Assembly: GCA_963789955.1 (NCBI GenBank)
Contig: CAWBMV010000038.1
Coordinates: forward strand, 1 to 27,696
Source: an uncultured Candidatus Rokubacteria bacterium
GTDB taxonomy: Bacteria; Methylomirabilota; Methylomirabilia; Rokubacteriales; CSP1-6
Direction: 5' to 3'
DNA: 27,696 nucleotides
Shown: positions 1,086 through 27,670 of the stretch, piece after piece
How positions within the stretch are numbered: the stretch's first letter is position 1
How the letters are laid out: each line of letters starts with the position of its first letter
Notes under the pieces: model-generated
What the model was told of the DNA's origin: nothing
What the model saw: the letters and a program-made list of their open reading frames with translations, nothing else
Databases searched by the model: none
Program-made: the position numbers and the translations under genes

Positions 1086-2319
1086 GCGGCGGGCAGGCGA
1101 TTTCTGTACAGCGCGCCGCCCTTCATGATCAGCGAGAGATGCTCGCCCTGGCCCTGCAGCAGGGAGAGATCGCGGAGCGGATTGCCGTCCACCACCAGGA
1201 GGTCGGCGAACGCGCCCGGCGCGAGGGTCCCGAGCTCGCGCGGCAAGCCGAGCAGCTCCGCGCCGACCATCCGTCGCCGAGCGGATGATCTCGTGCGGCG
1301 AGAGCACCTGCGAGCGGATCAGGAACTCGCGCGACTGATCCGGCTGAAGCTGGCCGAGCAGGTCGCTGCCGAACGCCATGCGCACGCCGGCTTCACGCGC
1401 CAGCTCGAGCGAGCGCAGCCCCGCCGCCATCAGCGACCTTGTTCTTCTCGAGGCTGTCGGCGCCCATGCCCCAGCGGCCGCCGTGGCGCTCGATCGCGTC
1501 GTAGGCCACCAGGGTCGGCACCAGGAAGGCCCCGCGCGAGGCCATCAGCTTGGCCGTCGAGGCATCGATCAGGTTACCGTGCTCGATGACGCGCACGCCG
1601 TTCTCGACCGCGCGCGCGATCGCCTCGGCCGCGTACGCGTGGGCGCACACGTACTTCTTGAAGACCGCGGCCTCCTCGACTGCGGCGCGGATCTCGTCCG
1701 TCGTGTACTGCAGGCTCTCGAGCGGATCGTAGGGCGAGGCGACGCCGCCTGAGGCCATGATCTTGATGTGGTCCACGCCCTGACGGAGCTGCTCGCGCAC
1801 CGCGCGGCGCACCTCGTCCACGCCGTCGGCGACGCCGGCCGTGAACGCGAGTGCATTGCAGCAATGGCACGCCGATCCCGTATCGGTCCGCCGGCGCGAA
1901 TCGCTGTGTCCGCTGGTCTGGCCGATCGGCCGGCCGGCCACGAAGAGCCGCGGACCCGGCAGGTGGCCCTGCGCCACCCCCTCACGGATGCCCCAGTCGG
2001 CGCCGCCCGTGTCGCGCACGGTGGTGAACCCGCGGTCGAGCATCGCGCGCATGAGGCCGGCGCCCCGCGCGGTCATCAGGGTCAGCGGGATCGCCTCCAG
2101 CGCGCGGATGTTCACTTCGGAGAGGAAGACGTGCACGTGACTGTCGATCAGCCCGGGCATCACGGTGCGCCCGCCGGCATCGAGGGTGAGCGTGGCCGAG
2201 ACTTTGATCGGCCCGGCGGACACCTCTCGGATGCGCTCGCCTTCCACGACGACCGACGCGTTCTCGGTGAGGTTGCCCGAGGCGGGATCCAGCGCGGTCG
2301 CGTTCCGGATCAGGAGCAT
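1082..2319 (-). CDS. Metal-dependent amidohydrolase, prolidase-like subgroup (two apparent indels near 1434 and 1271)
   Basis: Starts MLLIRNA. Motifs are PGLIDSHVH (HxH), RGFTTVRDTGG, HIKIMASGG, AHAY, IEHG, FGSD and C-terminal GTLAPGAFADLLVVDGNP. These are spread over three ORF-track frames (1393-2502, 183-1430, 1082-1270). Confidence 0.92.
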
Positions 2320-2347: not shown

Positions 2348-2419
2348 GGCCAGTCTTGATGGGCCCGGCGCCGCAAAGCCGACCGGCCGATCCCGGCACT
2401 TACTAGCGAGGAGGGGGCG

Positions 2420-4027
2420 ATGGACCTGGAGTCGGCGGTTCGGGCGGCAGCCGGAGGCGACCTCGACGCCTTCGCCGAGATCGTCAGGCGCTTCCAGCAC
2501 ATGGCCTTCGGCTACGCGCTGTCGTTCGTTCGCGACCTCGGGCAGGCGGAAGACATCGTCCAGGAAGCGTTCGTGGCGGCCTGGTACGCCCTGCCGACCC
2601 TCGCCGACCCTGCCGCGTTCGCCGGCTGGTTTCGCGGCATCGTGCGCCACCGCGCTCACCGGGTGCTGCGGCGCAAGCATCTCGAGGCCCTGCCGCTGAC
2701 CGAGGCCGACGCGGTGGCCGTGGACGAGCCGGCGCCCGATCGCCGGGTCGAGCGTCGCCAGGAAGTCGGCGCCGTGCTGGCGGCGATCGCCGGGCTCACG
2801 AGGCCCCTCCGCGAAGTCGTCACGCTCTACTACGTCCACGACTGCTCGCAACAGGACATCGCGACGTTCCTGGGGCTGCCGGTCACGACGGTGAACAACC
2901 GGCTGCACGCCGCGCGCGCGCAGCTCAAGCGGAGGACTCTGACCATGGTGAAAGACACGCTCGAGGCTCACCAGCTGCCCGACGACTTTGCGGCCCGGAT
3001 CGGCCGCATCGTGCGCGCGCGCGGCGGCGTCGTCGACGCACGTTTCGATCCATTGTCGCTGCCCGATCTGCTGACCGAGATCGTCGCGAGCGACGATGCC
3101 CGCCAGCGCGCGGTGACCCTGCAAGTCGTGCAGCGGCTCCCCGATGGCATCGTCCGCTGCGTTGTCACCTCGGCCGCCGAGTCGCTCGAGCCGGGCATGA
3201 CAGTGCTGAGTGCCGGCCGCCACGTTCAGACGCCGGTAAGCAAGGAATCGTTCGAGCGTAGCGTGCGGCTCCTCACCGGGCCGCCCGCGCCGCTCGGGGC
3301 ACCGGCGGAGATCCTCGAGACCGGGATCAAGGTGATCGACATCATGTGCCCCCTGGTGCGCGGAGGCACCGTCGCCATCGCGGGAGAGCTGCGCGCTGGG
3401 ACGACCGTCGTCACGGAAGAGCTGGTTCGCCGACTGAGCGGCGGGGCGGACGGCGTCTCGCTCTTCGCACTGGCTCCGTGGACACTGGTCTCGATCGCGG
3501 ACGCACTGAAGGAGGACGGCTACAGCGAAGGCACGGTGGGGCCGATCCAGACCTTCTATTTCCGCTCGGAGGAAGGTGCCTGGACGCCCGAGCGACTGGC
3601 GGGCCTGGCCGGGGTCGACGTGGTGGTCCGCCTGTCCGTCGCGCTCGCAGGTCGCGGCATCTATCCGACCGTGGATCCGCTCACCTCGCGGTCGCGATTG
3701 ATCGAATCGGGATGCCTCGATCGTGAGCATCTGGCGCTCGCGGCGCGGATTCGCACCGCGCTCCGCGCGCTCCTGGCGCCGGACGCCAGCACGCCGGCGG
3801 CCGAGCCGCTGGCGCTCGAACGCGCCGAGAAGCTCCTGCGGTTCTTCGCTCAGCCGTTCTACGTGGCCGAGCCGTACACCAAGCGTTCCGGCGTCACCGT
3901 CGGCCTCGCCGAGTCGCTCAGGGTGTGCCGCGAGATCCTCGACGGCGTGCACGACGCCGTCCCGACGAAGGCGTTCTACTTCACCGGTGGGCTCGACGCG
4001 GTCCTGACGAGCGCGGCCGCCCCATAG
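2420..4027 (+). CDS. ECF-type sigma-70 factor fused to a degenerate F1 ATP synthase beta-subunit-like C-terminal domain
   Basis: Residues ~1-172 contain sigma2 (AEDIVQEAFVAAW...FAGWFRGIVR) and sigma4 (LREVVTLYYVHDCSQQDIATFLGLPVTTVNNRLHAARAQL). Residues ~176-535 match AtpD motifs: GRIVRARGGVVDARF, LETGIKVIDIMCP, GIYPTVDPLTSRSR, RAEKLLRFFAQPFYVAE, ILDGVHDAVPTKAFYFTG. Strong RBS GAGGAGGGGG upstream. Confidence 0.88.
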   Translation: MDLESAVRAAAGGDLDAFAEIVRRFQHMAFGYALSFVRDLGQAEDIVQEAFVAAWYALPTLADPAAFAGWFRGIVRHRAHRVLRRKHLEALPLTEADAVAVDEPAPDRRVERRQEVGAVLAAIAGLTRPLREVVTLYYVHDCSQQDIATFLGLPVTTVNNRLHAARAQLKRRTLTMVKDTLEAHQLPDDFAARIGRIVRARGGVVDARFDPLSLPDLLTEIVASDDARQRAVTLQVVQRLPDGIVRCVVTSAAESLEPGMTVLSAGRHVQTPVSKESFERSVRLLTGPPAPLGAPAEILETGIKVIDIMCPLVRGGTVAIAGELRAGTTVVTEELVRRLSGGADGVSLFALAPWTLVSIADALKEDGYSEGTVGPIQTFYFRSEEGAWTPERLAGLAGVDVVVRLSVALAGRGIYPTVDPLTSRSRLIESGCLDREHLALAARIRTALRALLAPDASTPAAEPLALERAEKLLRFFAQPFYVAEPYTKRSGVTVGLAESLRVCREILDGVHDAVPTKAFYFTGGLDAVLTSAAAP

Positions 4028-4034
4028 TCATGGC

Positions 4035-4063
4035 TTGCCTCGGTGCCGTCGAGGCGGCACAAT
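4035..4063 (+). promoter_or_regulatory. Putative sigma70 promoter of the hydantoinase genes
   Basis: TTGCCT (4035-4040), 17-nt spacer, CACAAT (4058-4063), ending 10 nt before ATG 4074. An 8-bp inverted repeat cggtgccg/cggcaccg brackets the -10. Confidence 0.55.
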
Positions 4064-4073
4064 CGCGGCACCG

Positions 4074-6131
4074 ATGGCGCGCCACTGGCTCGGGATCGAT
4101 ATCGGCGGGACCTTCACCGACTTCGCCCTCTTCGACACGCAGACGGGCGAGCTGGTCGGCCTGAAGGTCCCCTCGACGCCCCACGAGTTCGCGGCCGCCG
4201 TTCGCACCGGCCTCGAGCGCCTCGCCGACGAGCACGGCGTCGACCTCCGCGAGATCGGCACCGTCGTCCACGGCACCACGATCGCCGTGAACACCTTGAT
4301 CCAGCGGACCGGCGCGCGGCTCGGCCTGCTCGTCACCGACGGGTTCCGCGACGTCCTCGAGCTCCAGCGCCTGCGGATGCCGAACCCGTTCGATCTGCAC
4401 GGCTCGCGGCCCTTGCCGCTGATTCCGCGCGCCCGTGTCGCCGAAGTCCGCGAGCGGCTGCGCGCCGACGGCACCATCGACACGCCGCTGGACGAGAGCA
4501 GCGTGCGCGCGGCGGTGCAGCATCTGACCCGCGGCGGTCAGAGTGTCGAGGGCCTGGTGATCTCGCTGCTGCACTCGTATCGGCGGCCCGAGCACGAGCA
4601 GAAGGCTCGGGCCATCGCCGAGCAGACGGCTTCCGGGGTTCCGGTGACCGCCTCCTCCGACGTCTGGCCGCAGGCGCGCGAGTACGAGCGCACCGCGCTG
4701 GCCGTCCTCGACGCGTACGTACAGCCCAAGGTGCAGCGCTACCTCGAAGGGTTCGAGCAGGCGCTCGCCGCGCGCGGGGCCCCGGCCATGCCGCACGTCA
4801 CGAAGTCGAACGGCGGCATCATGCCCGTCGCCGCCGCACGCACGCAGACGGCCGCGACGCTTCTGTCCGGGCCGGCCTCCGGCGTCATCGGCGCCGCCTA
4901 CGTCGCGAGCCGCGCCGGCCTGCCGAACATCATCACGCTCGACGTCGGCGGGACCAGCGCCGACATGGCGGTCGTCGAGAACGGACGCCCGCGCGTGAGC
5001 ACGAGCGAGCACATCGGCGGCGTGCCGGTGATGATGCCGGTCGTGGGCGTGACCGCCATCGGCGCGGGCGGCGGCTCCGTCGCGTGGGTCGACGACGTCG
5101 GGCTGCCGAAGGTCGGGCCGCAGAGCACGGGCGCCGAGCCGGGCCCCGCCTGCTACGGACGCGGGGGCAAGGACGCGACGCTCACGGACGCGTTCCTGGT
5201 CTCCGGCTTTCTCGACCCGGATCGCTTCCTCGGTGGGCGCATGCGCCTGGACCGGTCGCTGGCCGAAGCGGCCGTCGCGCGCTTCGCAGGCCGGCTGGGG
5301 ATGACACCCGACGAAGCGGCCGAGAGCATCGTGCGGGTTGCCGTGTCGAACATGTACGCGGAGTTCACCAAGATCCTGTCGCGCGCCGCCGTCGATCCCC
5401 GCGACTTCAGCCTGGTCGCCTTCGGCGGCGCCGGGCCGGTGGTCGGCGCGCTCGTCGCGCGCGAGGTCGGCATCCCCGCCGTGTTCGTCCCGCGCTCGCC
5501 GGGCACGCTCTGCGCCCTCGGCGCGCTCAGCGCCGACATCGTGAACGACGCGGTGCGGACGGTGCACACGCGCGTCGAAACGGAGCTGCGCGAAGCGTCG
5601 GTGCTCCGCCGGCAGTACGAGGATCTGCGCGCCGAGCTTTCCGAATGGCTCGCGCGTTTCGGCGCCGGCGCGGGCCCGGCCTCGTTCCGGCACGCCGCCG
5701 ACATGCGTTACGTCGGACAGTCGTACGAGATCGACGTGCCGGTCGAGCTCGGCTGGCTGGCACCGGGCGGCGGCGCGCCCCTGCTCGCCGCGTTTCATCG
5801 CGCGCACGAGCGCGCGTTCGGTCACGCCGACCGCGAGGCGCCCGCCGAGATCGTGAACCTCCGCATCCAGCTGCGCGCCGAACGCCAGCGGGTGCCGCTC
5901 GAGGAGCTGCCGGCCGGTTCGGCCGCCCCGGTCGCGCGCGCCGCGCGGAGGATCTGGCTCGACGGCCGGCCGACCGAGGCGCGGGTCTACGATCGCTCGG
6001 CGCTCGGCCGCGGCGCGCGGCTCGAGGGTCCGGCGATCGTCGAGCAGCCCGACACGACGGTGCTCGTGCCGGGCGGCCACGTCGGCGAGGTCGATCGCTT
6101 CGGGAACTTGCTGCTCCGGAGGGAAGGCTGA
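4074..6131 (+). CDS. Hydantoinase/oxoprolinase subunit A (N-methylhydantoinase A / acetone carboxylase beta-like)
   Basis: Motifs GIDIGGTFTD, VHGTT, EYERT, LLSGPASG, DVGGTS, IGAGGGS, GAEPGPACYGRGG, FGGAG, DMRYVGQSYE, GPAIVEQPDTT. Confidence 0.95.
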   Translation: MARHWLGIDIGGTFTDFALFDTQTGELVGLKVPSTPHEFAAAVRTGLERLADEHGVDLREIGTVVHGTTIAVNTLIQRTGARLGLLVTDGFRDVLELQRLRMPNPFDLHGSRPLPLIPRARVAEVRERLRADGTIDTPLDESSVRAAVQHLTRGGQSVEGLVISLLHSYRRPEHEQKARAIAEQTASGVPVTASSDVWPQAREYERTALAVLDAYVQPKVQRYLEGFEQALAARGAPAMPHVTKSNGGIMPVAAARTQTAATLLSGPASGVIGAAYVASRAGLPNIITLDVGGTSADMAVVENGRPRVSTSEHIGGVPVMMPVVGVTAIGAGGGSVAWVDDVGLPKVGPQSTGAEPGPACYGRGGKDATLTDAFLVSGFLDPDRFLGGRMRLDRSLAEAAVARFAGRLGMTPDEAAESIVRVAVSNMYAEFTKILSRAAVDPRDFSLVAFGGAGPVVGALVAREVGIPAVFVPRSPGTLCALGALSADIVNDAVRTVHTRVETELREASVLRRQYEDLRAELSEWLARFGAGAGPASFRHAADMRYVGQSYEIDVPVELGWLAPGGGAPLLAAFHRAHERAFGHADREAPAEIVNLRIQLRAERQRVPLEELPAGSAAPVARAARRIWLDGRPTEARVYDRSALGRGARLEGPAIVEQPDTTVLVPGGHVGEVDRFGNLLLRREG

Positions 6132-8122
6132 TGCGTCTGGACGCGCTCACCGTCGAGATTCTGCGGAACTACCTGCAGGGCGCCGTCGAGGAGATGGCGT
6201 ACGTCGTCGAGCGTACGGCGTACACCACGTTCGTGAAGGAGACCGCCGACTTCACCTGCGGTCTGCTGAATCCGTCCGGCGAGTTCTTCGCCTACCCGGT
6301 CGAGCTCGGCGTCGCGAGCTTCGGCGGCATCACCTACGCGGAGACCCTGGAGGCGGTGGGCCCCCTGGAACCGGGCGACGTCGTGATCACGAACGACCCG
6401 TACGGCTCGGCGGCGGCGGCGACACACCTGCCCGACATCCATCTGGTCAAGCCGATCTTCTGGGACAACCGGCTCGTTGCCTACGGCGCGGGCTTCCTGC
6501 ATAGCTCCGACGTCGGCGGCATGGTGCCGGCGTCGATCACGCCACGTGCCTCGGAGATCTTCCAGGAAGGCCTGCGGCTACCGCCCAAGAAGCTCTTCAA
6601 GCGCGGCGAGGTCAATCGCGACCTGCTCGACGTGATCCTCGCCAACTGTCGCATCCCCGAGCAGAACTGGGGCGATCTGCAGGCGCTGGTCGCCGGGCTC
6701 ACCACCGGCGAGCGGCGGATGCACGAGCTGATCCGCCGCTTCGGCCCCGACACGGTCGACAAGGCGATGGACGACCTGATCGACTACGCGACGCGCAAGG
6801 TCGAGGCGCTCATTCGCCGGATGCCGACCGGACGCTACGAGTTCTGGGACTACATCGAGGACGACGTGGTGTCGAAGATCCCGATCCGGCTGAAGGTGGC
6901 GCTGACGATCGCCGACGGCGAGATCCACCTGGACTTCACCGGCAGCGACATCCAGGTGAGCTCGGCGCTCAACGTGCCCACGGCCGGGAAGGTCCACCCG
7001 TTCATGTCCGTCGCGCTCGTCAACTACTTCGCGACGCGCGACCGGACGATCCCGCTCAACGCGGGCGTGCTGCGCCGCGTGCGCATGACCCTGCCCGAAG
7101 GCTCGGTCGTGAATCCGAAGTTCCCGGCGGCGTGCGGCGTGCGCTACGCGACCGTGCTCCGAATCTACGACGCGGTGCTCGGCGCGCTCGCTCGGGCGGT
7201 GCCCGAGGATATTCCGGCGGCCAGCGGCGGTCAGGGCTGCATGGTGGCGCTCTCGCTGCCGGACCCGGAGGCCGGACGCCGTCACGTCACCGTGATCGAG
7301 CCGATGATCGGCGGCGGCGGCGGGCGGCCGGCGCGCGACGGCGTCGACGGCTGCGACGCCTCGCTGGGATTTCTCAAGACGACGCCGGCCGAGACGCTCG
7401 AGGCGGAAGTCCCGATCGTCGTCCGACGGTTCCATCTGATCCCGGATTCCGCCGGCCCCGGCCGGTTCCGCGGCGGCTTCGGCGTGCGCCTGGACTTCCA
7501 GGTGTTCCAGCCCGAGGGCCTGGTGACTGCGCGCGGGATGGAGCGCCTGCGCTTCGCGCCCTGGGGCGTGGCCGGCGGTACCGCCGGCGCGACCGGCAGC
7601 GTGATGCTGAACCCGGACACCGCCGCCGAGAAGCCACTGCCGAAGATCGACGTGCTCGCGCTCGAGCCCGGCGACGTGCTCAGCGTCCGGACGCCGGGCG
7701 GCGGTGGTCACGGCGATCGCTTCACGCGGCCGCCGTCCCACGTACTCGCCGACGTCCTGTCCGGCCTCGTCTCGCGCGAGCGCGCGCGCGAGTCCTATGG
7801 CGTCGTCCTCGACGGCGATCGGGTCGATGAATCGGCCACGACGTCGCTACGTGCCGCCCAGCTCGAGGCCGCACCGCCACGCGCGGGCACGGGGGCCGTG
7901 TTCGATTTCGGGGCGGCGCGCCGTGAGCACGAGCGCCGCTGGCCGCCTGCGCTTCAGGACGCGTTCATCGCATTGCTGATGAGCCTGCCGGCGCCCTATC
8001 GCGCGTATGTCCGCCGCACGCTCTACGGTCGCGTCGAGGCGCTCGCCGCCGAGCGCCCGGTGACGATCGACGACCTGCATCGGCTCTTGAAAGATCTGCG
8101 CGCCTCGGTCGCGCTGAAGTGA
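6131..8122 (+). CDS. Hydantoinase B/oxoprolinase subunit B
   Basis: TGATG overlap with subunit A. Motifs EEM...RTAY, PGDVVITNDPY, THLPD, HSSDVGG, EIFQEGLRLPP, DSAGPGRFRGG, TPGGGGHG. The real start is MRLDAL at 6131, not the ORF-track start at 4043. Confidence 0.95.
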   Translation: MRLDALTVEILRNYLQGAVEEMAYVVERTAYTTFVKETADFTCGLLNPSGEFFAYPVELGVASFGGITYAETLEAVGPLEPGDVVITNDPYGSAAAATHLPDIHLVKPIFWDNRLVAYGAGFLHSSDVGGMVPASITPRASEIFQEGLRLPPKKLFKRGEVNRDLLDVILANCRIPEQNWGDLQALVAGLTTGERRMHELIRRFGPDTVDKAMDDLIDYATRKVEALIRRMPTGRYEFWDYIEDDVVSKIPIRLKVALTIADGEIHLDFTGSDIQVSSALNVPTAGKVHPFMSVALVNYFATRDRTIPLNAGVLRRVRMTLPEGSVVNPKFPAACGVRYATVLRIYDAVLGALARAVPEDIPAASGGQGCMVALSLPDPEAGRRHVTVIEPMIGGGGGRPARDGVDGCDASLGFLKTTPAETLEAEVPIVVRRFHLIPDSAGPGRFRGGFGVRLDFQVFQPEGLVTARGMERLRFAPWGVAGGTAGATGSVMLNPDTAAEKPLPKIDVLALEPGDVLSVRTPGGGGHGDRFTRPPSHVLADVLSGLVSRERARESYGVVLDGDRVDESATTSLRAAQLEAAPPRAGTGAVFDFGAARREHERRWPPALQDAFIALLMSLPAPYRAYVRRTLYGRVEALAAERPVTIDDLHRLLKDLRASVALK

Positions 8123-18421: not shown

Positions 18422-21400
18422 TCAGTCGTCGACGCCGCCCGGGATCTCGCGGGCGGGCGTGCGGCGCCAGGCGCGGCGTAACCGGTGGCGCCAGGCGCGC
18501 CGCTCGCCCTGCCGCGCCTGCCGGCGCCACGGCGCCAGCGACGGCGTCGAGAGCTGGAGCGCGCGGGCGGCATCTTCGAAGAGCGAATAGGCGACCGGCG
18601 TCACCAGCAGGGTCAGCAGCAGGCAGAGCGTCTGGCCGCCGATGACCACGACCGCGATGGCGCGCCGCTCCTCGGAGCCCGGTCCGGTCCCCACCCACAA
18701 CGGCAGCATGCCGGCCACGAGGGCCAACGTCGTCATCAAGATCGGCCGCAGCCGATCGCGGTTGCCCTGCATGATGGCCGCGTCGCGGTCCATGCCCTGC
18801 GCGCGCAGTGCGTTCATGTGGTCGATCTGCAAGATCGCGTTCTTCTTGACGACGCCGAACAGGACCAGGATGCCGAGCGCCGAGTAGAGGTTGAGCGTGT
18901 TGCCCGTGTAATAGAGCGAGAACAGTGCGAACGGCACCGAGAGCGGCAAGGACAGCAAGATCGTCAGCGGATGGATCAGGCTCTCGAACTGCGAGGCCAG
19001 GATCATGTACATGAAGATCACGGAGAGCAGGAAGACCCACAGGAACTCGGTGAAGGTCTTCTCCATCTCCCTCGCCTTGCCGGTGAGGAACGTCTGATAC
19101 GCGGTCGGCAGATTCATGTCCGCGACCGCCTTCTTGAGCAGCTCGTTGCGGTCGGCCTGGCCGTAGCCCGGCGCGATGCCGGCTCTCAGCCGCGTCTCGC
19201 GCTGCCGGTCAGTGCGGTCGATACGCGAGGCGGTGGCGGCCGGCTCGATCTTGACGACGTTGTCGAGCCGCACGAGACCGCCGCCGGGCGCCAGATTGAC
19301 CTGCGCCGGCGCGCCCGTCGCAGAGTTGGTCGACGTCGTGTCGCGCGAGACGTAGAGCCGCTGGATCGTGCCCAGGTTGCCGCGGAACTGCGGCATCAGG
19401 CGAATCTGAACGTCGTAGTCGTCGTTGACGACCGGATCGTGGAAGCGTGACACCTGATCGTCGCCGCCCACCATCAGCCGCAGCGCGGTCGCGATCTGCT
19501 GGGTGTCCACGCGCAGGTCGGCGGCCCGCTGGCGGTCGATCGCCACGCGGAGCTCGGGCTTGTCGAGCCGCAAGGTGGTGTCGATGTCCACGATGCCGCC
19601 GATGTCGCGCGCCTTCACCTTCAAGGTCTCGCCGTACTCGGCGAGCTTCTCGAGCTCGGGTCCGCGCAGCGCGAGATCGATGTCGAAGGTACCGCCGCCG
19701 ATGTTGAAGCCCGCGATGTTCCGGACCTGCGTACGCATGTCCGTGAACTTCTTGAAGCGCTGCCGGAGGGCCATCATCACCTCGCGCTGAGCGTAGTTGC
19801 CCCGGAACGCGTCCAGCGGCCGGCCGTGGATCAGCCCGTTCCAGAGCCGTCCCGGCGTCAACGTGCGCTCCTCGTGGGAGACCGTGCGCACGTACATGTA
19901 GCCCTGGTTCACCTTGCCCAGGAAGCTCCCGCCGCCCGACGCCAGAGTGAGCGCCACGCCCTTCGTCTCGCGCGCTTCCTTCGAGAGCGCCTGCATCGCC
20001 TCGTCCATCGCGGCGAGGCTCATCTTCTCGGGGCCGAAGACCAGTACCTCGAACTCCGACTCGTCGACGTCGCTCGGGATGTACTCCTGCTTGACCTGGC
20101 GATAGATCGGCACCGCGGAGGCCAGGGTGAGCACGCTGATGACGACGATGACCCAGCGGTGCCGCATCGACCACGCCAGGCTCCACGCGTAGGCGCCGTC
20201 GATCCAGGCGTAGAAGCCGCCGCGCGAGCTCGCCTGGCCACCCTCGGCGGCGTGGCCGCTCGCGGCGTCCTCCGTTCGCAGGAGACGCGCGCACATCATC
20301 GGGGTCAGCGAGAACGACACGATCAGGCTGACCAGCACGGACACGGCGGCCGTGAGGCCGAACTGGTACAGGAACCGCCCGGAGATCGAGGACATGAACG
20401 AGACCGGCACGAAGATGACGACCAGGGAGAACGTCGTCGCCATGACCGCCAGCCCGATGTCGGCGGTCGCCTCGCGGGCGGCCTCGAACGGCCGCATCTT
20501 CTTTTCCTCGACGAAACGGAAGACGTTCTCGAGCACGACGATGGCGTCGTCGATGACGATGCCGACCATCAGCACCAGGGCGAGCATCGTCACGCTGTTC
20601 AGGGTGAAGTTGAGCGCCCACATCATCCCGAACGCCGAGATGACCGAGGTCGGGATGGCCACCGCGGCGATGAACGTCGAGCGCCACGAGCGCATGAAGG
20701 CGAGCACGACCAGCGAGGCCAGGATCGAGCCGAGCACCAGGTGCAGGTTGATCTCGTGGAGCGCCGCGTAGATGTAGCGCGACTGGTCGCGGATCACCTC
20801 GAGCTTCACGTCCGGCGGAACTTGACCGCTCAGGCGCACCAGCTTGGCCTTCACGCCCTCGATCACGGCGACCGTGTTCTCGCCCGACTGCCGGCGGACC
20901 TCCATGATGACCGTCGGCACGCCGTTGAGCCGCGCGGCCGAGCGCTGCTCCTTGGTGCCGTCCTCGGCGTAGCCGATGTCGCGCACGCGGACCGGGACGC
21001 CGCTCAACGTGGCCACGACCAGCTCGTTGAACGTACGCGGCTCTGCCATCCGGCCCATCGTCCGGAGCGACGCCTCGTTCAGCCCGGCCGTCACGTTGCC
21101 GCCCGGGCAGGTCGGCGTTCTGACGGATGAGGGCGTCGCGCACGGTCGTGATCGGGATCTGGTAGGCCGCCAGCCGGTCGGGATCGACCCAGATATTGAC
21201 CGCGCGGAGCAGCCCGCCGACGATCCGGACCTCGCCGACTCCCGACGAGCGCTCGAGCTGTGGACGCACGATCTTGTCGGCGATCTCGGTCAGCTCGCGG
21301 AGCGAGCGCTCGCCGGACAGCGCGATCGTGACGACCGGCGCCTGGTCGTTGTCGAACTTCGAGACGATGGGCGGCAGGATCTCGCGCGGCAGGTTGCGCA

Positions 21401-21749
21401 TCGCGATGGCGACCTTGTCGCGCACGTCCTGGGCCGCCACGTCGATCTGCCGATTCAGGTTGAAGGTGACGATGATGACCGCGGTGCCGGGGCCGGAGAT
21501 CGAGCGCAGCTCGTTGATCCCCTGGATCGTGTTGATCTGCTCCTCGAGCTTCTGCGCGACCTGGGTCTCGGTTTCCTCGGTCGAGGCGCCCGGCAGCTCG
21601 ACGCGCACGCTGACGGTGGGCAGATCGACGGTCGGGAAGCGATCGACGCCGAGCCGGAACCAGCTCGCGGCGCCGATGACCACGAACGCCATGACCAGCA
21701 TGGTCGCGAACACCGGACGCTTGATGCAGACCTCGGCGAGTTTTTGCAT
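18422..21749 (-). CDS. RND efflux permease, AcrB/MdtB family (one apparent +1 indel near 21103)
   Basis: MQKLAEVCIKRPVFATM..., GIVIDDAIVVLEN, LASQFES, GVVKKNAIL, RLRPILMTT. The N-terminal ~215 aa lie in ORF 19209-21749 and the rest in ORF 18422-21094. Confidence 0.93.
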
Positions 21750-23833: not shown

Positions 23834-24208
23834 TCACGATACCGTCCGGTTCTTGAAGAACGAGCTCTTCAGGGCGATCTTTCCGCCGCGGAACGTGAAC
23901 ACGTCGCAGCCGTTCACCTCGACCTTCCGGCCGTCGCCGCTGGTGCCCGTGAAGATCCACTCCGACAGCCCACGGTCGCCCGAGACGAAGTGACGCGCCG
24001 CGCCGAAGCGGGCGTCCGGAAACGCCGCGAACACGCTCGAGAACGCCTTGCGCACGCGCTCGGGCCCCGCGTGGCGCGTGCCGCAGGCGTCCGGGCCCGC
24101 GATGCTCTCGAAGACGCAGTCGTCGGACATGAAGGTCATCAAGAGGTCGACTTCGTGACCGTTCCAGCCGGCCTCGAAGAACGCGTCCAGGTATTTCGTC
24201 GTCTTCGT
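23834..24208 (-). CDS. SnoaL/NTF2-like protein (start uncertain; ACG at 24208 after GAGGAG)
   Basis: Frame reads (T/M)KTTKYLDAFFEAGWNGHEVDLLMTFMSDDCVFE...FPDARF...GLSEWIFTGT...EVNGCDVFTFRGGKIALKSSFFKNR, which is typical of SnoaL_2. Confidence 0.85.
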   Translation of the reverse strand, partial: TKTTKYLDAFFEAGWNGHEVDLLMTFMSDDCVFESIAGPDACGTRHAGPERVRKAFSSVFAAFPDARFGAARHFVSGDRGLSEWIFTGTSGDGRKVEVNGCDVFTFRGGKIALKSSFFKNRTVS

Positions 24209-24424
24209 GGTCTCCTCGCTGAGTCGTTGGGACGAGGGTCACTCCGCACCCGCGGCGTCAATTCCCGATACATCCGGGTGGTCGCGTCGAACGACACGTT
24301 GTATGGTGCCCTCGCCGGGCCGGCGCCCATACATCCGCGCGGCGCGCTCGCGCACTACCGGATCTGGCGATATCCTTTGCTTGGCCCGATCGAGGGGCCG
24401 ACGGTCCGCGTAAAGGGCTCAGCC

Positions 24425-24600
24425 CACTCCGTTCGACATAGACGCACACATAACCTGACTTCCTGCCCGAAGCTCGCGGACGCCGGGCGCAACGCCCGGA
24501 CCATCCACCAGATCGTCAAGACCTCGGGCCACACCGACCTCGAACTGTTCATGCGCCAGCACCAGGAGCGCGACGAGCGGCACGACGAGGTCAAGCGCGT
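24425..24600 (+). pseudogene. Possible decayed tyrosine recombinase C-terminal fragment
   Basis: In-frame HSVRH...HNL--TSCPKLADAG.NARTI...SGHTDLELFMRQ resembles the box II pattern HxLRHTFxTxLxxAG...IxxxLGHxxxxxxxxY. The Tyr position is occupied by Gln. Judged by eye only. Confidence 0.4.
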
Positions 24601-25673
24601 CGTCTGGGTCATCCAGGAGGCGGCGGCCGAGGGGCGGGCCGACGAGCTTCACCGTCTGCTCGACGCGCATCCGGATCTGGTCGATGCGCCCGGCGTGACC
24701 TGGGAGCAGCAGACCGCGCTGCACAAGGCGGCGTGGAAAAATCGGCTCGAGTGCGTCCGCGTCCTCTTGGAGCACGGCGCGGACGTCGGCATTCGCGACT
24801 TCGGCGACAACGCCTATCCCCTGCACTTCGCGGCCGCCGAGGCCGATCTGGCGATCGTCAGGATGCTGGTCGAGGCGGGCTCGGACGTCGTCGGAGAGGG
24901 CGATGACCATCATCTGGAGGTCCTCGGCTGGGCGACGTGCCTGCGCGGCGTTCGCGAGGACGTCGCCGAGTATCTTCTGCGCGCCGGTGCGCGCCTCAAC
25001 ATCTGGTCCGCCATCGCGCTCGGGCCGCGCCGACGACGTGCGCGCCTTCGTGCGGAGCGTCCCGTCGATCCTGTCGGCCCGGATGAGCCGCAACGAGCAC
25101 GGCCGCACACCGCTGCATCACGCGGCGGCGATGAATCGCCCGGCGATCGTCCGACTCCTGCTCGATCTCGGCGCGGACGTGCACGCGCCGAGACGACGCG
25201 AGCCGGACGGCGTTGACCGTCGCCGTCGTGGACAAAGCCGATCCGAGCGTGCTCGCGCTGCTCCAGGACGCGGGCGCCACGTTCGATCTGCTCGCGGCGG
25301 TGACGCTCGGCCGCTACGATCTTGCGGAGCGGATCCTCGTCGAGGATCCCGCGCGCATCGGGACCGACGGGCGAGACACCGTCGTCCTGCACCTCCTGGT
25401 CGCGCAGCGGAACGACGACGGCGTGCGATGGCTCATCGAGCGCGGCGTCGACGTGAACGCCAAGCGCGTGCTGTGGGACTGCAACCCACCGCGCTCCACG
25501 TCACCACCGAGCTGCCGGGAGGCGCGATCGAGCTCACGCGCATGCTGCTCGATGCCGGCGCCGATCCCAACATCCGGGACGACAAGTACGAGGGGACGGC
25601 CCTCGGCTGGGCCGAGTTCTGCGGCCAGCCCCAGATCGCCGAACTGCTGCGCCAGCGCGGCGCGACGACCTGA
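24551..25673 (+). CDS. Ankyrin repeat protein (three apparent indels near 25023, 25188, 25485; start uncertain)
   Basis: Repeats QTALHKAAWKNRLECVRVLLEHGADV, YPLHFAAAEADLAIVRMLVEAGSDV, RTPLHHAAAMNRPAIVRLLLDLGADV, TALHVT...MLLDAGADPNIRD, TALGWAEFCGQPQIAELLRQRGA. Confidence 0.88.
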
Positions 25674-25681
25674 GGAGTTGA

Positions 25682-25863
25682 TTGTCGTAGGCGCGCCTCG
25701 GCCGGCGGGGCCCCAGCCCCGCGACGGCCTGCAGCGCGCATCTTGTCTTAGGCGCGCCTCGGCCGGCGGGGCCCCAGCCCCGCGACGGCCTGCAGCGCGC
25801 ACCTTGTCTTAGGCGCGCCTCGGCCGGCGGGGCCCCAGCCCCGCGACGGCCTGCAGCGCGCAC
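25682..25863. repeat. Tandem array of three ~61-bp palindromic (REP/BIME-like) units between convergent genes
   Basis: Units start at 25682, 25743 and 25804. The core taggcgcgcctcggccggcggggccccagccccgcgacggcctgcagcgcgca is identical in all three. Each folds as gcgcgc..ggccg-gcggggc-ccca-gccccgc..cggcc..gcgcgc. Confidence 0.95.
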
Positions 25864-26959
25864 TACCGAATGGCCGCCAGCGGCTCGAGTCCCATCTCGC
25901 CCGTGCAGACGCCGAACCACTGGATGACTTCCTTGTGGAGCGGGATGCCGTGGGCGCGGCGGTGCTGGATCTCTTCGGCCTCGGAGAGCCCTGGATAGAG
26001 GACGCGCTCCTGACCCGGAGCCGGCGTGGCGGTTCTGAGGGTCTTGAGCATGCCGTCCATCGTGTCCTTGAACTGCTCCGGGTCGGTGAAGGCCTCGATG
26101 TCGTAGGCGGCGAAGTGATTCTTCGAGCCGCTGCCGGCGGCGAGCATCGTGGGCAGGGCGCCGGAGAGCACGGTCGACAGGACTTCGGCCATCATCGCGA
26201 AGCCGTAGCCCTTGTGGGAGCCCTGCTCGCGCGTGCCGCCGAGCGGCGCCTGATGGTATTCGTCACGGTCGAAGACCGGCTTCTCCTCCATGATCGGAAT
26301 GCCTTCCTTGTCCGTCACCCAGCCCGGCAGCAGCGGCGAGCCGACGCGAATGGCCAGCCGGATCTTGTTGCCGGCGATCGCGGAGGTCGCGGCGTCGAAG
26401 AGCATCGGCGCCTCGTGCCGCGCCGGGGCCGCGAGCGCGATCGGGTTCGTGCCGAGCAGCGGCTTGGCGGCGAACGTCGGCACCACGCTGAGTCCGGCGC
26501 CGGTGAAGCACACGCCGACCATGCCCTGCTCGGCGGCCTGCATCGCGTAGTGGCCGATCGCGCCGAAGTGGCCGCTGTTGAACACGGTCACCACGCCGAC
26601 GCCGACGCGCCGCGCCTTCTCGATCGCCAGCCGCATCGCCTTGGGGCCCGACCATGATGCCCGAGGCGCCGCTCGGCGTCGATCACCGCCGTGCCCGGTG
26701 ACTCGCGCGCGATGCGCCAGCCCGGATGCGGATCGAGCTTGCCGGCCTTGTAGTCGCGTACGTAGGCGCGCAGCATGTTCGACACGCCGTGCGTCTCGAC
26801 GCCCCGGAGATCCGTCATCGTGAGGACGTCGGCGCCCTCCGCGGCGTCCTCCGGCGTGAGACCGAGCTTTTCGAAGATCTGCGTGACGGTGCGACGCAGC
26901 GCCGCCTCGGTCACGAAGACCTGGTCCTTCACCGGAACCTTGAAGCGCTCGAGAATCAT
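25863..26959 (-). CDS. Ldh_2 family oxidoreductase (malate/L-lactate/ureidoglycolate/sulfolactate dehydrogenase-like; two apparent +1 indels near 26661 and 26643)
   Basis: MILERF...DLRGVETHGV, NSGHFGAIGHY, PTFAAKPLLGTNPIA, FDAATS, LGG...GSHKGYG, ERVLYPG. Confidence 0.92.
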
Positions 26960-26991
26960 GGCTGGCTCTCCCCTCGCGAATCGTCGGCGCG

Positions 26992-27621
26992 CTAGGCGCC
27001 GCGCACGTAGCGCCGGCACACCAGGCGCAGGTGATCGCGGAAATGTGGCTGCAGCCGGCTCGTCCAGTCGCTCTGGCGCGCCTGCTTCCACTCGGCCGAC
27101 TCCTGCACCTCGGGCGTCGCCAGGTGGTAGAGCGCCACGTACTTGCGGTTCCCGGTGCCGCGGAAGCGGCGGGCGCCGAGGACGCCAGGCACGGCGGCGA
27201 GCGCCGGGATGTGCTCCTTGTCGTACCACTCGTTGAACTCGGCTTCGTGCTCCGGCGCGATGTTCATGGCATTGAGGAGCAACCCACCCGCACCGGCCGG
27301 CGGCAGCTGGTCGCCCGGAAGGATCTGATCGCCCTCGAAGCGCATCAGGCGCTCGACCCGGCTGGTGACCCGTTTCGACCACGGTGACAGGTTCGCCCCG
27401 CCGATCGCCAGATAGGCCGGGCTCGCGAGCACCTTGACGTTCTCGAGGTCGTACGTGGCGACCGAGATCTTGCGGTCGCTCACGCCGATCCAGCGGTCGC
27501 ACACGAGGAAGCCCGGAACGCGCTGCCGCTCCGGCAGATGCTCTGTGTCGTACCAGTCCTGGAACTCGTCCTCGGCCGCCTGCCCGATGTTCATCGCCGC
27601 GATCAAGGTGCCCTTTGCCAT
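26992..27621 (-). CDS. Tandem EthD/DUF4286-like dimeric alpha+beta barrel protein
   Basis: Two internal repeats: EDEFQDWYDTEHLPERQRVPGF and EAEFNEWYDKEHIPALAAVPGV. RBS GGAGGAG before ATG 27621. Confidence 0.8.
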   Translation of the reverse strand: MAKGTLIAAMNIGQAAEDEFQDWYDTEHLPERQRVPGFLVCDRWIGVSDRKISVATYDLENVKVLASPAYLAIGGANLSPWSKRVTSRVERLMRFEGDQILPGDQLPPAGAGGLLLNAMNIAPEHEAEFNEWYDKEHIPALAAVPGVLGARRFRGTGNRKYVALYHLATPEVQESAEWKQARQSDWTSRLQPHFRDHLRLVCRRYVRGA

Positions 27622-27641
27622 GGTCGGCTCCTCCCGGCGGA

Positions 27642-27670
27642 AGATTGCCACGACGCTCGCGACTCGGCAA
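27642..27670 (-). promoter_or_regulatory. Putative sigma70 promoter for the DUF4286-like/Ldh_2 genes
   Basis: TTGCCG (27670-27665), 17-nt spacer, then TG-n-CAATCT extended -10 (27647-27642). Confidence 0.5.

Follow-up and report, generated by a model that had tools for sequence, protein, structure and literature searches.

Sigma factors of the extracytoplasmic function (ECF) type which carry a fused extension act as one-component systems, and few types of extension have been studied so far (SnoaL, TPR and Cys-rich). For the groups ECF41 (SnoaL) and ECF42 (TPR), passages of PMC7826278 and PMC8999054 ascribe to the extension a presumed modulating effect in cis on the sigma factor. Here we report on a gene encoding 535 amino acids, located at positions 2420-4027 of a 27,696-nucleotide stretch of DNA from an uncultured Candidatus Rokubacteria bacterium (assembly GCA_963789955.1, contig CAWBMV010000038.1; hereafter the window), in which an ECF sigma factor is joined to an extension derived from the beta subunit of the F1 ATP synthase. 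Like ECF41 and ECF42, the protein has a minimal sigma2-sigma4 core followed by a soluble C-terminal domain, with no anti-sigma factor nearby; unlike them, its extension is about 345 residues of F1-beta fold, compared with a SnoaL domain of 120 or a TPR domain of 200 residues.

A further point of comparison is ECF264 from Paenibacillaceae, for which passages of the PMC7826278 supplement give a long cytoplasmic extension (DUF1835, ~350 residues), no anti-sigma factor, and a predicted -10 element GGCACATT which, compared by description, resembles the GGCAC[CT]T found upstream of the present gene. The two differ in the extension domain, in the -35 element (GTAACCTT against TAAAG[CG] here) and in phylum. 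On the side of the ATPases, the F1 alpha and V-type B subunits are non-catalytic paralogues with an F1-type nucleotide-binding domain (NBD) devoid of catalysis, and a passage of PMC5608556 assigns to F1 alpha a regulatory, non-catalytic nucleotide site. Alpha, however, keeps an intact Walker A motif and is part of a ring, whereas the module described here is carried by a transcription factor and is devoid of the Mg-binding Thr and of one third of the domain. The mycoplasma F1-like ATPases (the MMOB1670 gliding complex and the MSC_0618 type) are also F1 beta homologues in a role other than ATP synthesis, and NCBIfam models of mycoplasma type were secondary matches of our protein (E 7e-30, score 104 against a cut-off of 850; E 2e-18, score 66 against 570); they differ in being annotated as subunits of ATPase complexes and in having no sigma fusion.

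A literature search on ECF extensions, ATP synthase and Rokubacteria sigma factors, with subscription-only papers outside its reach, retrieved no description of this architecture. The main text of PMC7826278 has no mention of ATP synthase or ATPase, and its supplementary text, of which the tables were possibly not covered, names ATP synthase only as a neighbouring gene or target and ankyrin nowhere. None of the 64 passages on a "C-terminal extension" in the portion of that supplement reaching ECF295 concerns an ATP-synthase-like domain, and such an extension is not mentioned in the available portion of PMC8999054. The initial annotation of the window, made by a model from the nucleotide sequence, had stated that it knew of no characterised ECF controlled by an F1-beta fold, and indeed none is described in the ECF papers searched. 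What is new is the F1-beta-derived pseudo-ATPase as an extension, while sigma factors of the ECF type whose extensions are regulatory are already known.

A sigma factor core fused to an F1-beta-derived module

The gene is a true ECF sigma factor fused to an F1-beta-derived C-terminal extension on a single polypeptide (coordinates of all features are collected in Table 1). Translation, Pfam and the NCBIfam sigma70-ECF model TIGR02937 (78.8 bits against a cut-off of 42.9) agree with the initial annotation on one open reading frame (ORF) of 535 residues with complete sigma regions 2 and 4. These were the sole sigma regions matched by Pfam or NCBIfam, which fits the layout of ECF group IV. The sigma4 signature of the clade, TTVNNRLHAAR, is kept in both family alignments (A1 and A2), and the sigma part looks functional; the GC content at third codon positions (GC3) is 0.88 over the whole gene. 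In the helical linker which leads from sigma region 4 to the extension, the columns P92, D94, F95, A97, R98 and G100 (numbering of alignment A2) show no variation in any of the 18 rows. The peptides singled out in the initial annotation, namely GRIVRARGGVVDARF, LETGIKVID, GIYPTVDPLTSRSR, QPFYVAE and AFYFTG, were all found in the translation.

Beyond the linker, the protein matches F1 beta both in sequence and in fold. Four of the Pfam domains that had been predicted were recovered: alongside Sigma70_r2 and Sigma70_r4_2 there is a match to ATP-synt_ab_N (aa 197-264, E 2.8e-4, 21.8 bits against a cut-off of 20.9) and one to ATP-synt_ab (aa 302-350, E 6.6e-8), the latter spanning only positions 1-47 of the 213 in the profile. 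The NCBIfam atpD model TIGR01039 reached an E-value of 3.5e-46 but only 158 bits, below its equivalog cut-off of 462.85. Against solved F1 beta chains (E 6.5e-41) the match fell into two blocks, one joining query residues 194-350 to beta residues 9-182 and the other joining 369-532 to 297-467. An AlphaFold2 model computed from 82 family sequences had a pLDDT of 88.8 and a pTM of 0.75, with low confidence confined to the linker between sigma2 and sigma4 (aa 88-103). Foldseek searches with this model ranked F1 beta chains first (E about 1e-22), and VIA-align superposed its residues 193-535 on F1 beta with a Z-score of 24.2, 291 residues aligned, a root-mean-square deviation of 10.8 and 32% identity. 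Pfam, solved structures, model and fold alignment all place beta-barrel, NBD and C-terminal helices in the order seen in AtpD. Docking of aa 1-190 against aa 191-535 as two chains, run without controls, gave a score of 0.00 and no verdict in either direction.

The genuine atpD of the genome sits on a separate contig (C36), and its product is 33-34% identical to the module by blastp, or 36-40% in the genome search. The two share the order of the three domains, the motifs ETGIKVID, GIYPxVDPL and QPFxVAE, and the fold (Z 24). The module differs by its fusion to a sigma factor, its location away from any atp operon, the loss of ~110 core residues, and the lack of the catalytic Glu, Walker B, GK[ST] and DELSEED. 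The earlier claim of ~360 residues collinear with AtpD needs one correction: the collinearity is interrupted where ~110 beta residues are reduced to ~18, and the Walker A Lys is gone.

Loss of the catalytic apparatus

The interruption corresponds to residues about 187-296 of the genome's own AtpD, for which the module has about 18 residues. The extent of the losses was counted in 70 representatives of 490-620 residues, picked by length only, some of which (e.g. P0247) may bear another extension, their match being limited to the sigma part. The segment with the catalytic Glu is missing in 69 of them and Walker B in at least 67, the site of the Mg-binding Thr is occupied by L, M, V, A or I in 64, and GK[ST] is retained in a single one, as well as in none of 12 long forms. 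The column of the DELSEED loop reads ASTPAAEP in the window protein and is gapped, variable or unrecognisable across the family. At the P-loop, the Lys site holds K in 35, R in 23 and T in 16 rows of an 82-row alignment, and the Thr site is hydrophobic in most of them.

Since the catalytic Glu and Walker B are deleted, the P-loop is degenerate and GK[ST] is gone family-wide, the module is predicted to be a catalytically dead ATPase derivative which cannot hydrolyse ATP. The decay is a family trait and not an accident of a single gene. The link to ATP/ADP status proposed in the initial annotation fails in any form which requires turnover of ATP.

Retained adenine-pocket positions and selection

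The positions which the family keeps were counted in the same 82 rows, which have a mean column identity of 31% and are 27-86% identical to the window protein; in all 82 aligned sequences, the 345-residue extension (threshold above 50 residues) is conserved together with the sigma core. G327 is invariant and the P-loop Lys site is K or R in 58 rows, with V330 present in 73. In the GIYPTVDPL motif, residue 415 is aromatic in 81 rows, P416 is found in 82 and D419 in 80; in QPFYVAEPYT, the counts are 72 for F480, 72 for A483, 69 for an aromatic residue at 486 and 77 for T or S at 487. The counterparts of the adenine pocket thus rank among the best-conserved positions of the alignment. In beta, according to passages of PMC5608556, Val165, Tyr345, Pro346, Phe418 and Phe424 sandwich or line the adenine site, and the distance between Tyr345 and Phe424 differs between the open and the closed state. 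By a transfer of numbering through the shared motifs, we infer that the conserved positions of the module correspond to these five residues.

Purifying selection acts on every domain of the fusion. Between the window gene and its relative at locus L028, dN/dS was 0.20 in the sigma part, 0.12 in the barrel, 0.10 in the NBD and 0.33 in the C-terminal domain, and over six pairs it ranged from 0.10 to 0.47 across all four domains. A pair of cysteines, Cys310 and Cys503 (3348-3350 and 3926-3928), was considered as a redox switch and set aside: C310 occurs in 61 of the 82 rows, C503 in 45 and both in 36, so that the pair is not universal and a redox role, possible in principle, would not be a general one.

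Distribution across genomes

The suspicion that the architecture might sit unstudied in databases was borne out in many genomes and under several phylum labels. Of 8000 candidates scored in a word-indexed search, 905 were relatives; identity is 62-99% for the 120 listed, and the named ones are metagenome-assembled genomes (MAGs) of Rokuibacteriota/Methylomirabilota in which the gene is annotated merely as sigma-70 family. A phmmer search of 1.84 billion representatives returned 615 matches at E <= 1e-30, and the best 150 of these include many full-length forms at 27-58% identity. Among the GTDB species genomes of the window's phylum, the fusion occurs in 33 of 251, all within one family: 32 of 158 genomes of the window's own family besides the window's genome itself, and 0 of 92 from the 12 other families. 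The carriers belong to 9 of 68 genera, and one genome (G098) holds two paralogues.

Outside the phylum, 17 of 301 sampled genomes in the class of G254, a record titled Thermomicrobiales, carry the fusion at 35-48% identity; two of these (G517 and G408) are flagged unpublished, and without them the count is 15 of 299. In the order of G252, titled Alphaproteobacteria, it was found in 6 of 201 sampled genomes (G252, G657, G749, G578, G754 and G734). Three of the six copies are full length, the one in G578 spans aa 1-402 only, the one in G754 is split in two and that of G734 contains five TGA stops. With the window protein, the copies from genomes titled Alphaproteobacteria share 50-59% identity, and they nest in the Rokubacteria-type subclade (L069 and L070 in the tree), which suggests that the gene was transferred among lineages of soil bacteria. 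When 185,579 species genomes were scanned for the junction, 54 loci were obtained, and full-length fusions occur under the record titles Rokubacteria, Alphaproteobacteria, Rubrobacter, Chloroflexi/Thermomicrobiales and Planctomycetota. The ESM Atlas contains a 139-member cluster of the same make-up, named automatically "ATP synthase beta chain family protein", with Thermomicrobiota as the commonest phylum. In addition, each of 14 soil DNA runs from 12 studies holds 57-71% of the sampled words of the fusion gene. Several bacterial phyla appear to possess the fusion design, and among uncultured lineages of soil (Rokubacteria, Chloroflexota) the family is common.

Sister architectures and the sigma-domain tree

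Nine of 30 representatives scanned (P0218, P0222, P0225, P0235, P0240, P0251, P0260, P0262 and P0265) have ankyrin repeats in the place of the barrel. These proteins of 670-780 residues consist of an ECF sigma factor, ankyrin repeats, a less-reduced F1-beta NBD and the C-terminal domain, and align continuously with AtpD from residue about 63-86 to the end. They retain the Walker B strand (LLIVD, LLVID or LLVVE), with a deletion of about 25-40 residues after Walker B only, and their P-loops are degenerate too (GLGVM, GSGKI, GVGKL). In a barrel-less form, found at L087, L088, L092 and L093 in records titled Chloroflexi, Dormiibacterota and Binatus and confirmed by Pfam for the last three loci, about 30 residues join the sigma factor to the beta-like NBD, which is followed by the C-terminal domain.

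The same sigma clade is also found with unrelated extensions: T2SSF in Brocadiaceae-titled MAGs (L089:3509-4963 and L094:3689-4945), a GNAT acetyltransferase in a Planctomycetota-titled record (L091:3683-4867), and extensions without a Pfam match at L096, L098, L099 and L101. All of these carry the TTVNNRLHAAR signature in sigma4, and part of them have a related motif upstream.

A quick IQ-TREE tree of the sigma domain was built from 69 rows, taking in every other barrel representative, 11 of the 12 long forms and 17 proteins from the loci. It separates the sigma clade from five other ECFs of the same genome (SH-aLRT 98) and groups the ankyrin forms (SH-aLRT 96) and the barrel-less forms (SH-aLRT 100) each in one clade, with the barrel forms paraphyletic. 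One sigma clade with many types of extension fits the view of extensions as exchangeable input domains. The variation in the N-terminal part of the extension (barrel, ankyrin repeats or none) and the decay of the DELSEED loop both speak against assembly into an F1-like ring.

A promoter-like element upstream of the fusion

A single element aligns across the upstream regions of the orthologues, with the consensus TAAAG[CG]-N15-GGCAC[CT]T. Its end is placed 24-26 nt ahead of the start codon in most loci, with a ribosome-binding site of GGAGG type after it; similar GGAGG strings are carried by orthologous leaders. Each of the 21 Methylomirabilota loci has the motif, one of them with a single mismatch, and it is exact in 21 of 30 further loci, including Chloroflexi-, Alphaproteobacteria- and Rubrobacter-titled records as well as barrel-less and GNAT forms. 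Near-variants (GGTAC, GGGAC, GGGTC) occur at L068, L089, L094, L096 and L098, and none was seen upstream in L080, L081, L086, L099 and L101, where the gene starts are uncertain. A motif accompanying the sigma clade through different phyla and types of extension is to be expected under ECF autoregulation, and it suggests that the fusion gene may direct its own transcription.

With a position weight matrix (PWM) derived from 39 sites, the self site has the top score (26.3 bits) in the 6.77-Mb genome. The next match (23.3 bits) lies inside an ORF, as do the next-best ones, and a reversed control gave as many matches or more. With a 41-nt PWM, the self site alone exceeds 14 bits in the genome, and the strict pattern at other spacings has 0-2 matches. 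The sigma-54 promoter consensus has a spacing of N10. A sigma-54 reading of the TGGCAC...TTGC string present in some leaders was rejected, the spacing in L037, L041 and L043 being GG-N8-GC.

Genomic context and features of the window

The fusion is flanked by 100 nt upstream (2320-2419, up to a divergent amidohydrolase gene) and by 7 nt downstream, which leaves no room beside it for an anti-sigma or atp gene. In agreement with the initial annotation, which had seen no other atp gene and no anti-sigma gene in the window, Pfam scans of its 29 larger ORFs matched neither, and no anti-sigma factor was found among 30 neighbours at 17 orthologous loci.

Apart from the window, L028 and L029, which are the two closest loci, are the only ones where the hyuA-like and hyuB genes follow the fusion directly; at L032, L034, L035, L036 and L042 a hyuA homologue (38-41% identity) is found at a distance of about 5 kb. 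Enzymes of the hyuA/hyuB type (hydantoinase/oxoprolinase) are ATP-dependent. The hyuA-like gene of the window is probably co-transcribed with the fusion. Contigs from soil RNA libraries cross the junction between the fusion stop and the hyuA start in three runs of three studies (X15, 3950-4109; X17, 3950-4386; X19, 4021-4212), which is compatible with co-transcription and no proof of a single transcript. The cover of these contigs is partial and of low depth, it shows no start, strand or level, DNA carry-over is possible and gaps are uninformative. A sharp peak of depth at 3307-3340, which codes for ETGIKVID, appears in all four RNA-library runs and is attributed to cross-mapped atpD transcripts of other organisms, because the loose ends read as LLAPYAKGGK-type sequence.

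A free-standing ankyrin-repeat ORF is located in the window at 23990-25216 (+), at a distance of about 20 kb from the fusion. Two loci belonging to one genus have an ankyrin-repeat gene immediately upstream of the fusion, 47-59 nt away (L034:6439-6954 and L042:6226-6942). Two other genes of the window are interrupted. An AcrB-type RND pump (18422-21749, -) has its ACR_tran profile split over overlapping frames, positions 2-216 in ORF 19209-21749 and 224-1020 in ORF 18422-21094, which points to a frameshift or sequencing error near 21095. Likewise, an Ldh_2 gene (malate/L-lactate dehydrogenase family; 25863-27670, -) has profile positions 2-86 in ORF 26588-27670 and 92-330 in ORF 25863-26636, and a frameshift near 26640 is probable.

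Table 1. Positions of the fusion gene, its domains and motifs, and adjacent elements in the window
Feature	Positions	Strand	Basis or remark
Divergent amidohydrolase gene, probable start MLLIRN at 2319	1393..2319	-	Pfam PF01979; L029 orthologue aligns from residue 30 of the long ORF
Promoter-like motif AAAGC-N15-GGCACTT	2375..2401	+	-35-like 2375-2379; -10-like 2395-2401; GGCAC 25 nt before ATG
Shine-Dalgarno GAGGAGG	2408..2414	+	5 nt 5' of ATG; read from sequence
ECF sigma / F1-beta-like fusion gene, 535 aa	2420..4027	+	Open frame; stop codon 4025-4027
Sigma region 2, aa 21-86	2480..2677	+	Pfam PF04542 Sigma70_r2, E 2e-12
Sigma region 4, aa 118-169	2771..2926	+	Pfam PF08281 Sigma70_r4_2, E 5.5e-14
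Linker helix from sigma4 to barrel, aa 171-193, with LPDDFAARIG	2930..2998	+	Helix 171-183 in model
F1-beta N-terminal beta-barrel, aa 194-268	2999..3223	+	Pfam PF02874 at aa 197-264; model strands 194-268; aligned from beta residue 9
Remnant F1-beta NBD, aa 296-430	3305..3709	+	Pfam, solved-structure match, model, AtpD alignment
Degenerate P-loop GELRAGTT, aa 322-329	3383..3406	+	Replaces GGAGVGKT
Deletion scar, aa 351-369	3470..3526	+	Stands for ~110 beta residues with catalytic Glu (GERTREG) and Walker B strand (LLFIDN)
GIYPTVDPL, aa 413-421	3656..3682	+	Counterpart of beta Tyr345/Pro346 adenine-stacking motif; counts in text
F1-beta C-terminal helical domain, aa 431-535	3710..4024	+	Beta alignment, model; DELSEED loop decayed
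QPFYVAEPYT, aa 478-487	3851..3880	+	Counterpart of beta Phe418/Phe424 adenine-pocket motif; 82-row alignment
hyuA-like gene, 698 aa, TTG start at 4035	4035..6131	+	7 nt after fusion stop codon
hyuB (Hydantoinase_B/oxoprolinase), start approximate	6140..8122	+	Pfam PF02538, E 9.7e-154, residues 700-1225 of the frame from 4043

Possible roles of the extension

The inability to hydrolyse ATP, the maintenance of the extension by selection and a sigma clade which swaps its extensions together form the pattern of ECF one-component systems such as ECF41 and ECF42. The extension is probably the sigma factor's own sensor or switch. On balance, we lean slightly towards a cytoplasmic, one-component, anti-sigma-independent ECF whose activity would be gated by the 345 C-terminal residues of pseudo-ATPase. 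The sigma factor would transcribe its own gene from the element at 2375-2401 and, in this genome, hyuA and hyuB as well, with the module as a built-in regulator following the same logic as the SnoaL domain of ECF41 or the TPR domain of ECF42.

What the module may perceive is a more tentative matter, and for a nucleotide sensor we would give clearly less than an even chance. On this reading, the module would bind an adenine nucleotide or another adenine-containing ligand without hydrolysing it, at a site made of the Tyr/Pro/Phe pocket and the glycine-rich remnant of the P-loop, and the open/closed hinge inherited from beta, placed beside sigma4, would free or occlude sigma2 and sigma4 for binding to RNA polymerase. 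The isolated beta monomer, as a passage of PMC6269674 reports, is open without nucleotide and closes upon binding. Extended to the family as a whole, the proposal of a multi-phylum ECF clade in which beta became a hydrolysis-dead adenine-nucleotide sensor, with its hinge gating sigma2/sigma4 and transcription initiation reading the adenylate state, is doubtful, and we put it forward as conjecture.

Several observations count against a gated, nucleotide-sensing sigma factor. The window protein has Thr, rather than Lys or Arg, at the P-loop lysine site, as in 16 of the 82 rows, so that phosphate binding may be weak or absent in its subclade. The conserved motifs form part of the structural core of the beta fold as well, and they could have been kept for structural reasons. 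A second target promoter was not found: in the genome, two sites match the strict pattern AAAG[GC]-N15-GGCAC[CT]T, the other one inside an ORF, and its 70 matches in 159 genomes of the family are no commoner than those of a reversed control. By comparison of coordinates, 25 of the 70 lie directly upstream of fusion genes, and extra matches in G180, G182 and G000 fall within open frames. The gene neighbourhood varies beyond the closest relatives (17 loci). In the sigma-domain tree, the less-reduced ankyrin forms nest within the more-reduced barrel forms; because of this nesting and of the long outgroup branches, this quick tree gives no order for the deletion and swap events. Lastly, the taxon labels are mostly titles of MAG records, some of them demonstrably wrong. 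Records titled Nitrosotalea, Acidoferrum, Deferrimicrobiaceae and Verrucomicrobiia (L057, L059, L060 and L062) hold a fusion 60-62% identical to that of the window, and the first of these titles is unreliable because the contig of L057 is identical with G150:C36, assigned by GTDB to the family of the window's genome.

Foremost among the alternatives, and in our judgement rather unlikely, is that the beta-like module binds no ligand and is a scaffold for interaction or oligomerisation, the sigma factor being kept in an inactive homo-oligomer or held by a partner, such as an ankyrin protein or F1 alpha, until the partner undergoes a change. F1-type subunits form rings naturally, the P-loop lysine of the window protein is lost, and the N-terminal part of the extension is absent in some forms and in others swapped for ankyrin repeats, a classical interaction module; ankyrin genes moreover lie close to the fusion at L034 and L042, and one is present in the window. 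Yet no neighbouring gene is conserved across the 17 loci, about 110 core residues have disappeared together with the DELSEED loop, and the barrel shows poor conservation and can be dispensed with in some lineages. A scaffold would also leave unexplained why the adenine-pocket residues are the best-conserved positions.

It is improbable, to a greater degree, that the extension is a constitutive structural need of sigma activity which senses nothing, with purely transcriptional control exerted by the autoregulated promoter together with other regulators. In favour of this, the extension is under strong purifying selection, the conserved self-promoter indicates a loop of positive feedback, and a passage of the PMC7826278 supplement reports the TPR extension of ECF42 as essential for activity. 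Such a need accounts, however, neither for the retention of the ligand pocket nor for the free exchange of the extension for T2SSF or GNAT within the same sigma clade. A working ATPase which couples ATP hydrolysis to sigma activation would agree with the homology to F1 beta, but is very hard to reconcile with the deletion of the Glu and Walker B segments, a P-loop reading GELRAGTT, GK[ST] in one of 70 representatives and a TIGR01039 score of 158 against 462.85. An artefact of assembly or frameshift, or a decaying pseudogene, which the two probably frameshifted genes of the window (near 21095 and 26640) and a few broken relatives (G754, G734) might bring to mind, is already refuted by the conservation data, as the fusion is open in independent assemblies that make up more than 100 protein clusters, in 33 of the phylum's genomes and in other lineages, is represented in the 14 soil DNA runs of 12 studies, and has a dN/dS well below 1 in each domain.

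Implications

Under the one-component reading which we favour, a structurally unrelated type of extension would be added to the few studied in ECF sigma factors, and its source would be a molecular machine that is among the best understood. The mechanics of the donor are known, binding of nucleotide shutting the hinge, and the regulatory hypothesis can therefore be tested with few point mutants. The family would offer a clear case of a rotary-ATPase catalytic subunit exapted as a signalling pseudoenzyme, with graded intermediates still extant, as the ankyrin forms retain the Walker B strand which the barrel forms have lost. A highly specific promoter and a self-contained design could, in addition, be of interest to builders of orthogonal ECF switches. 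Regulation in the host lineages, Rokubacteria and Chloroflexota, is almost uncharted, and if the sensor reading is true, ATP-consuming enzymes of the hydantoinase/oxoprolinase type would be under adenylate control in this genome.

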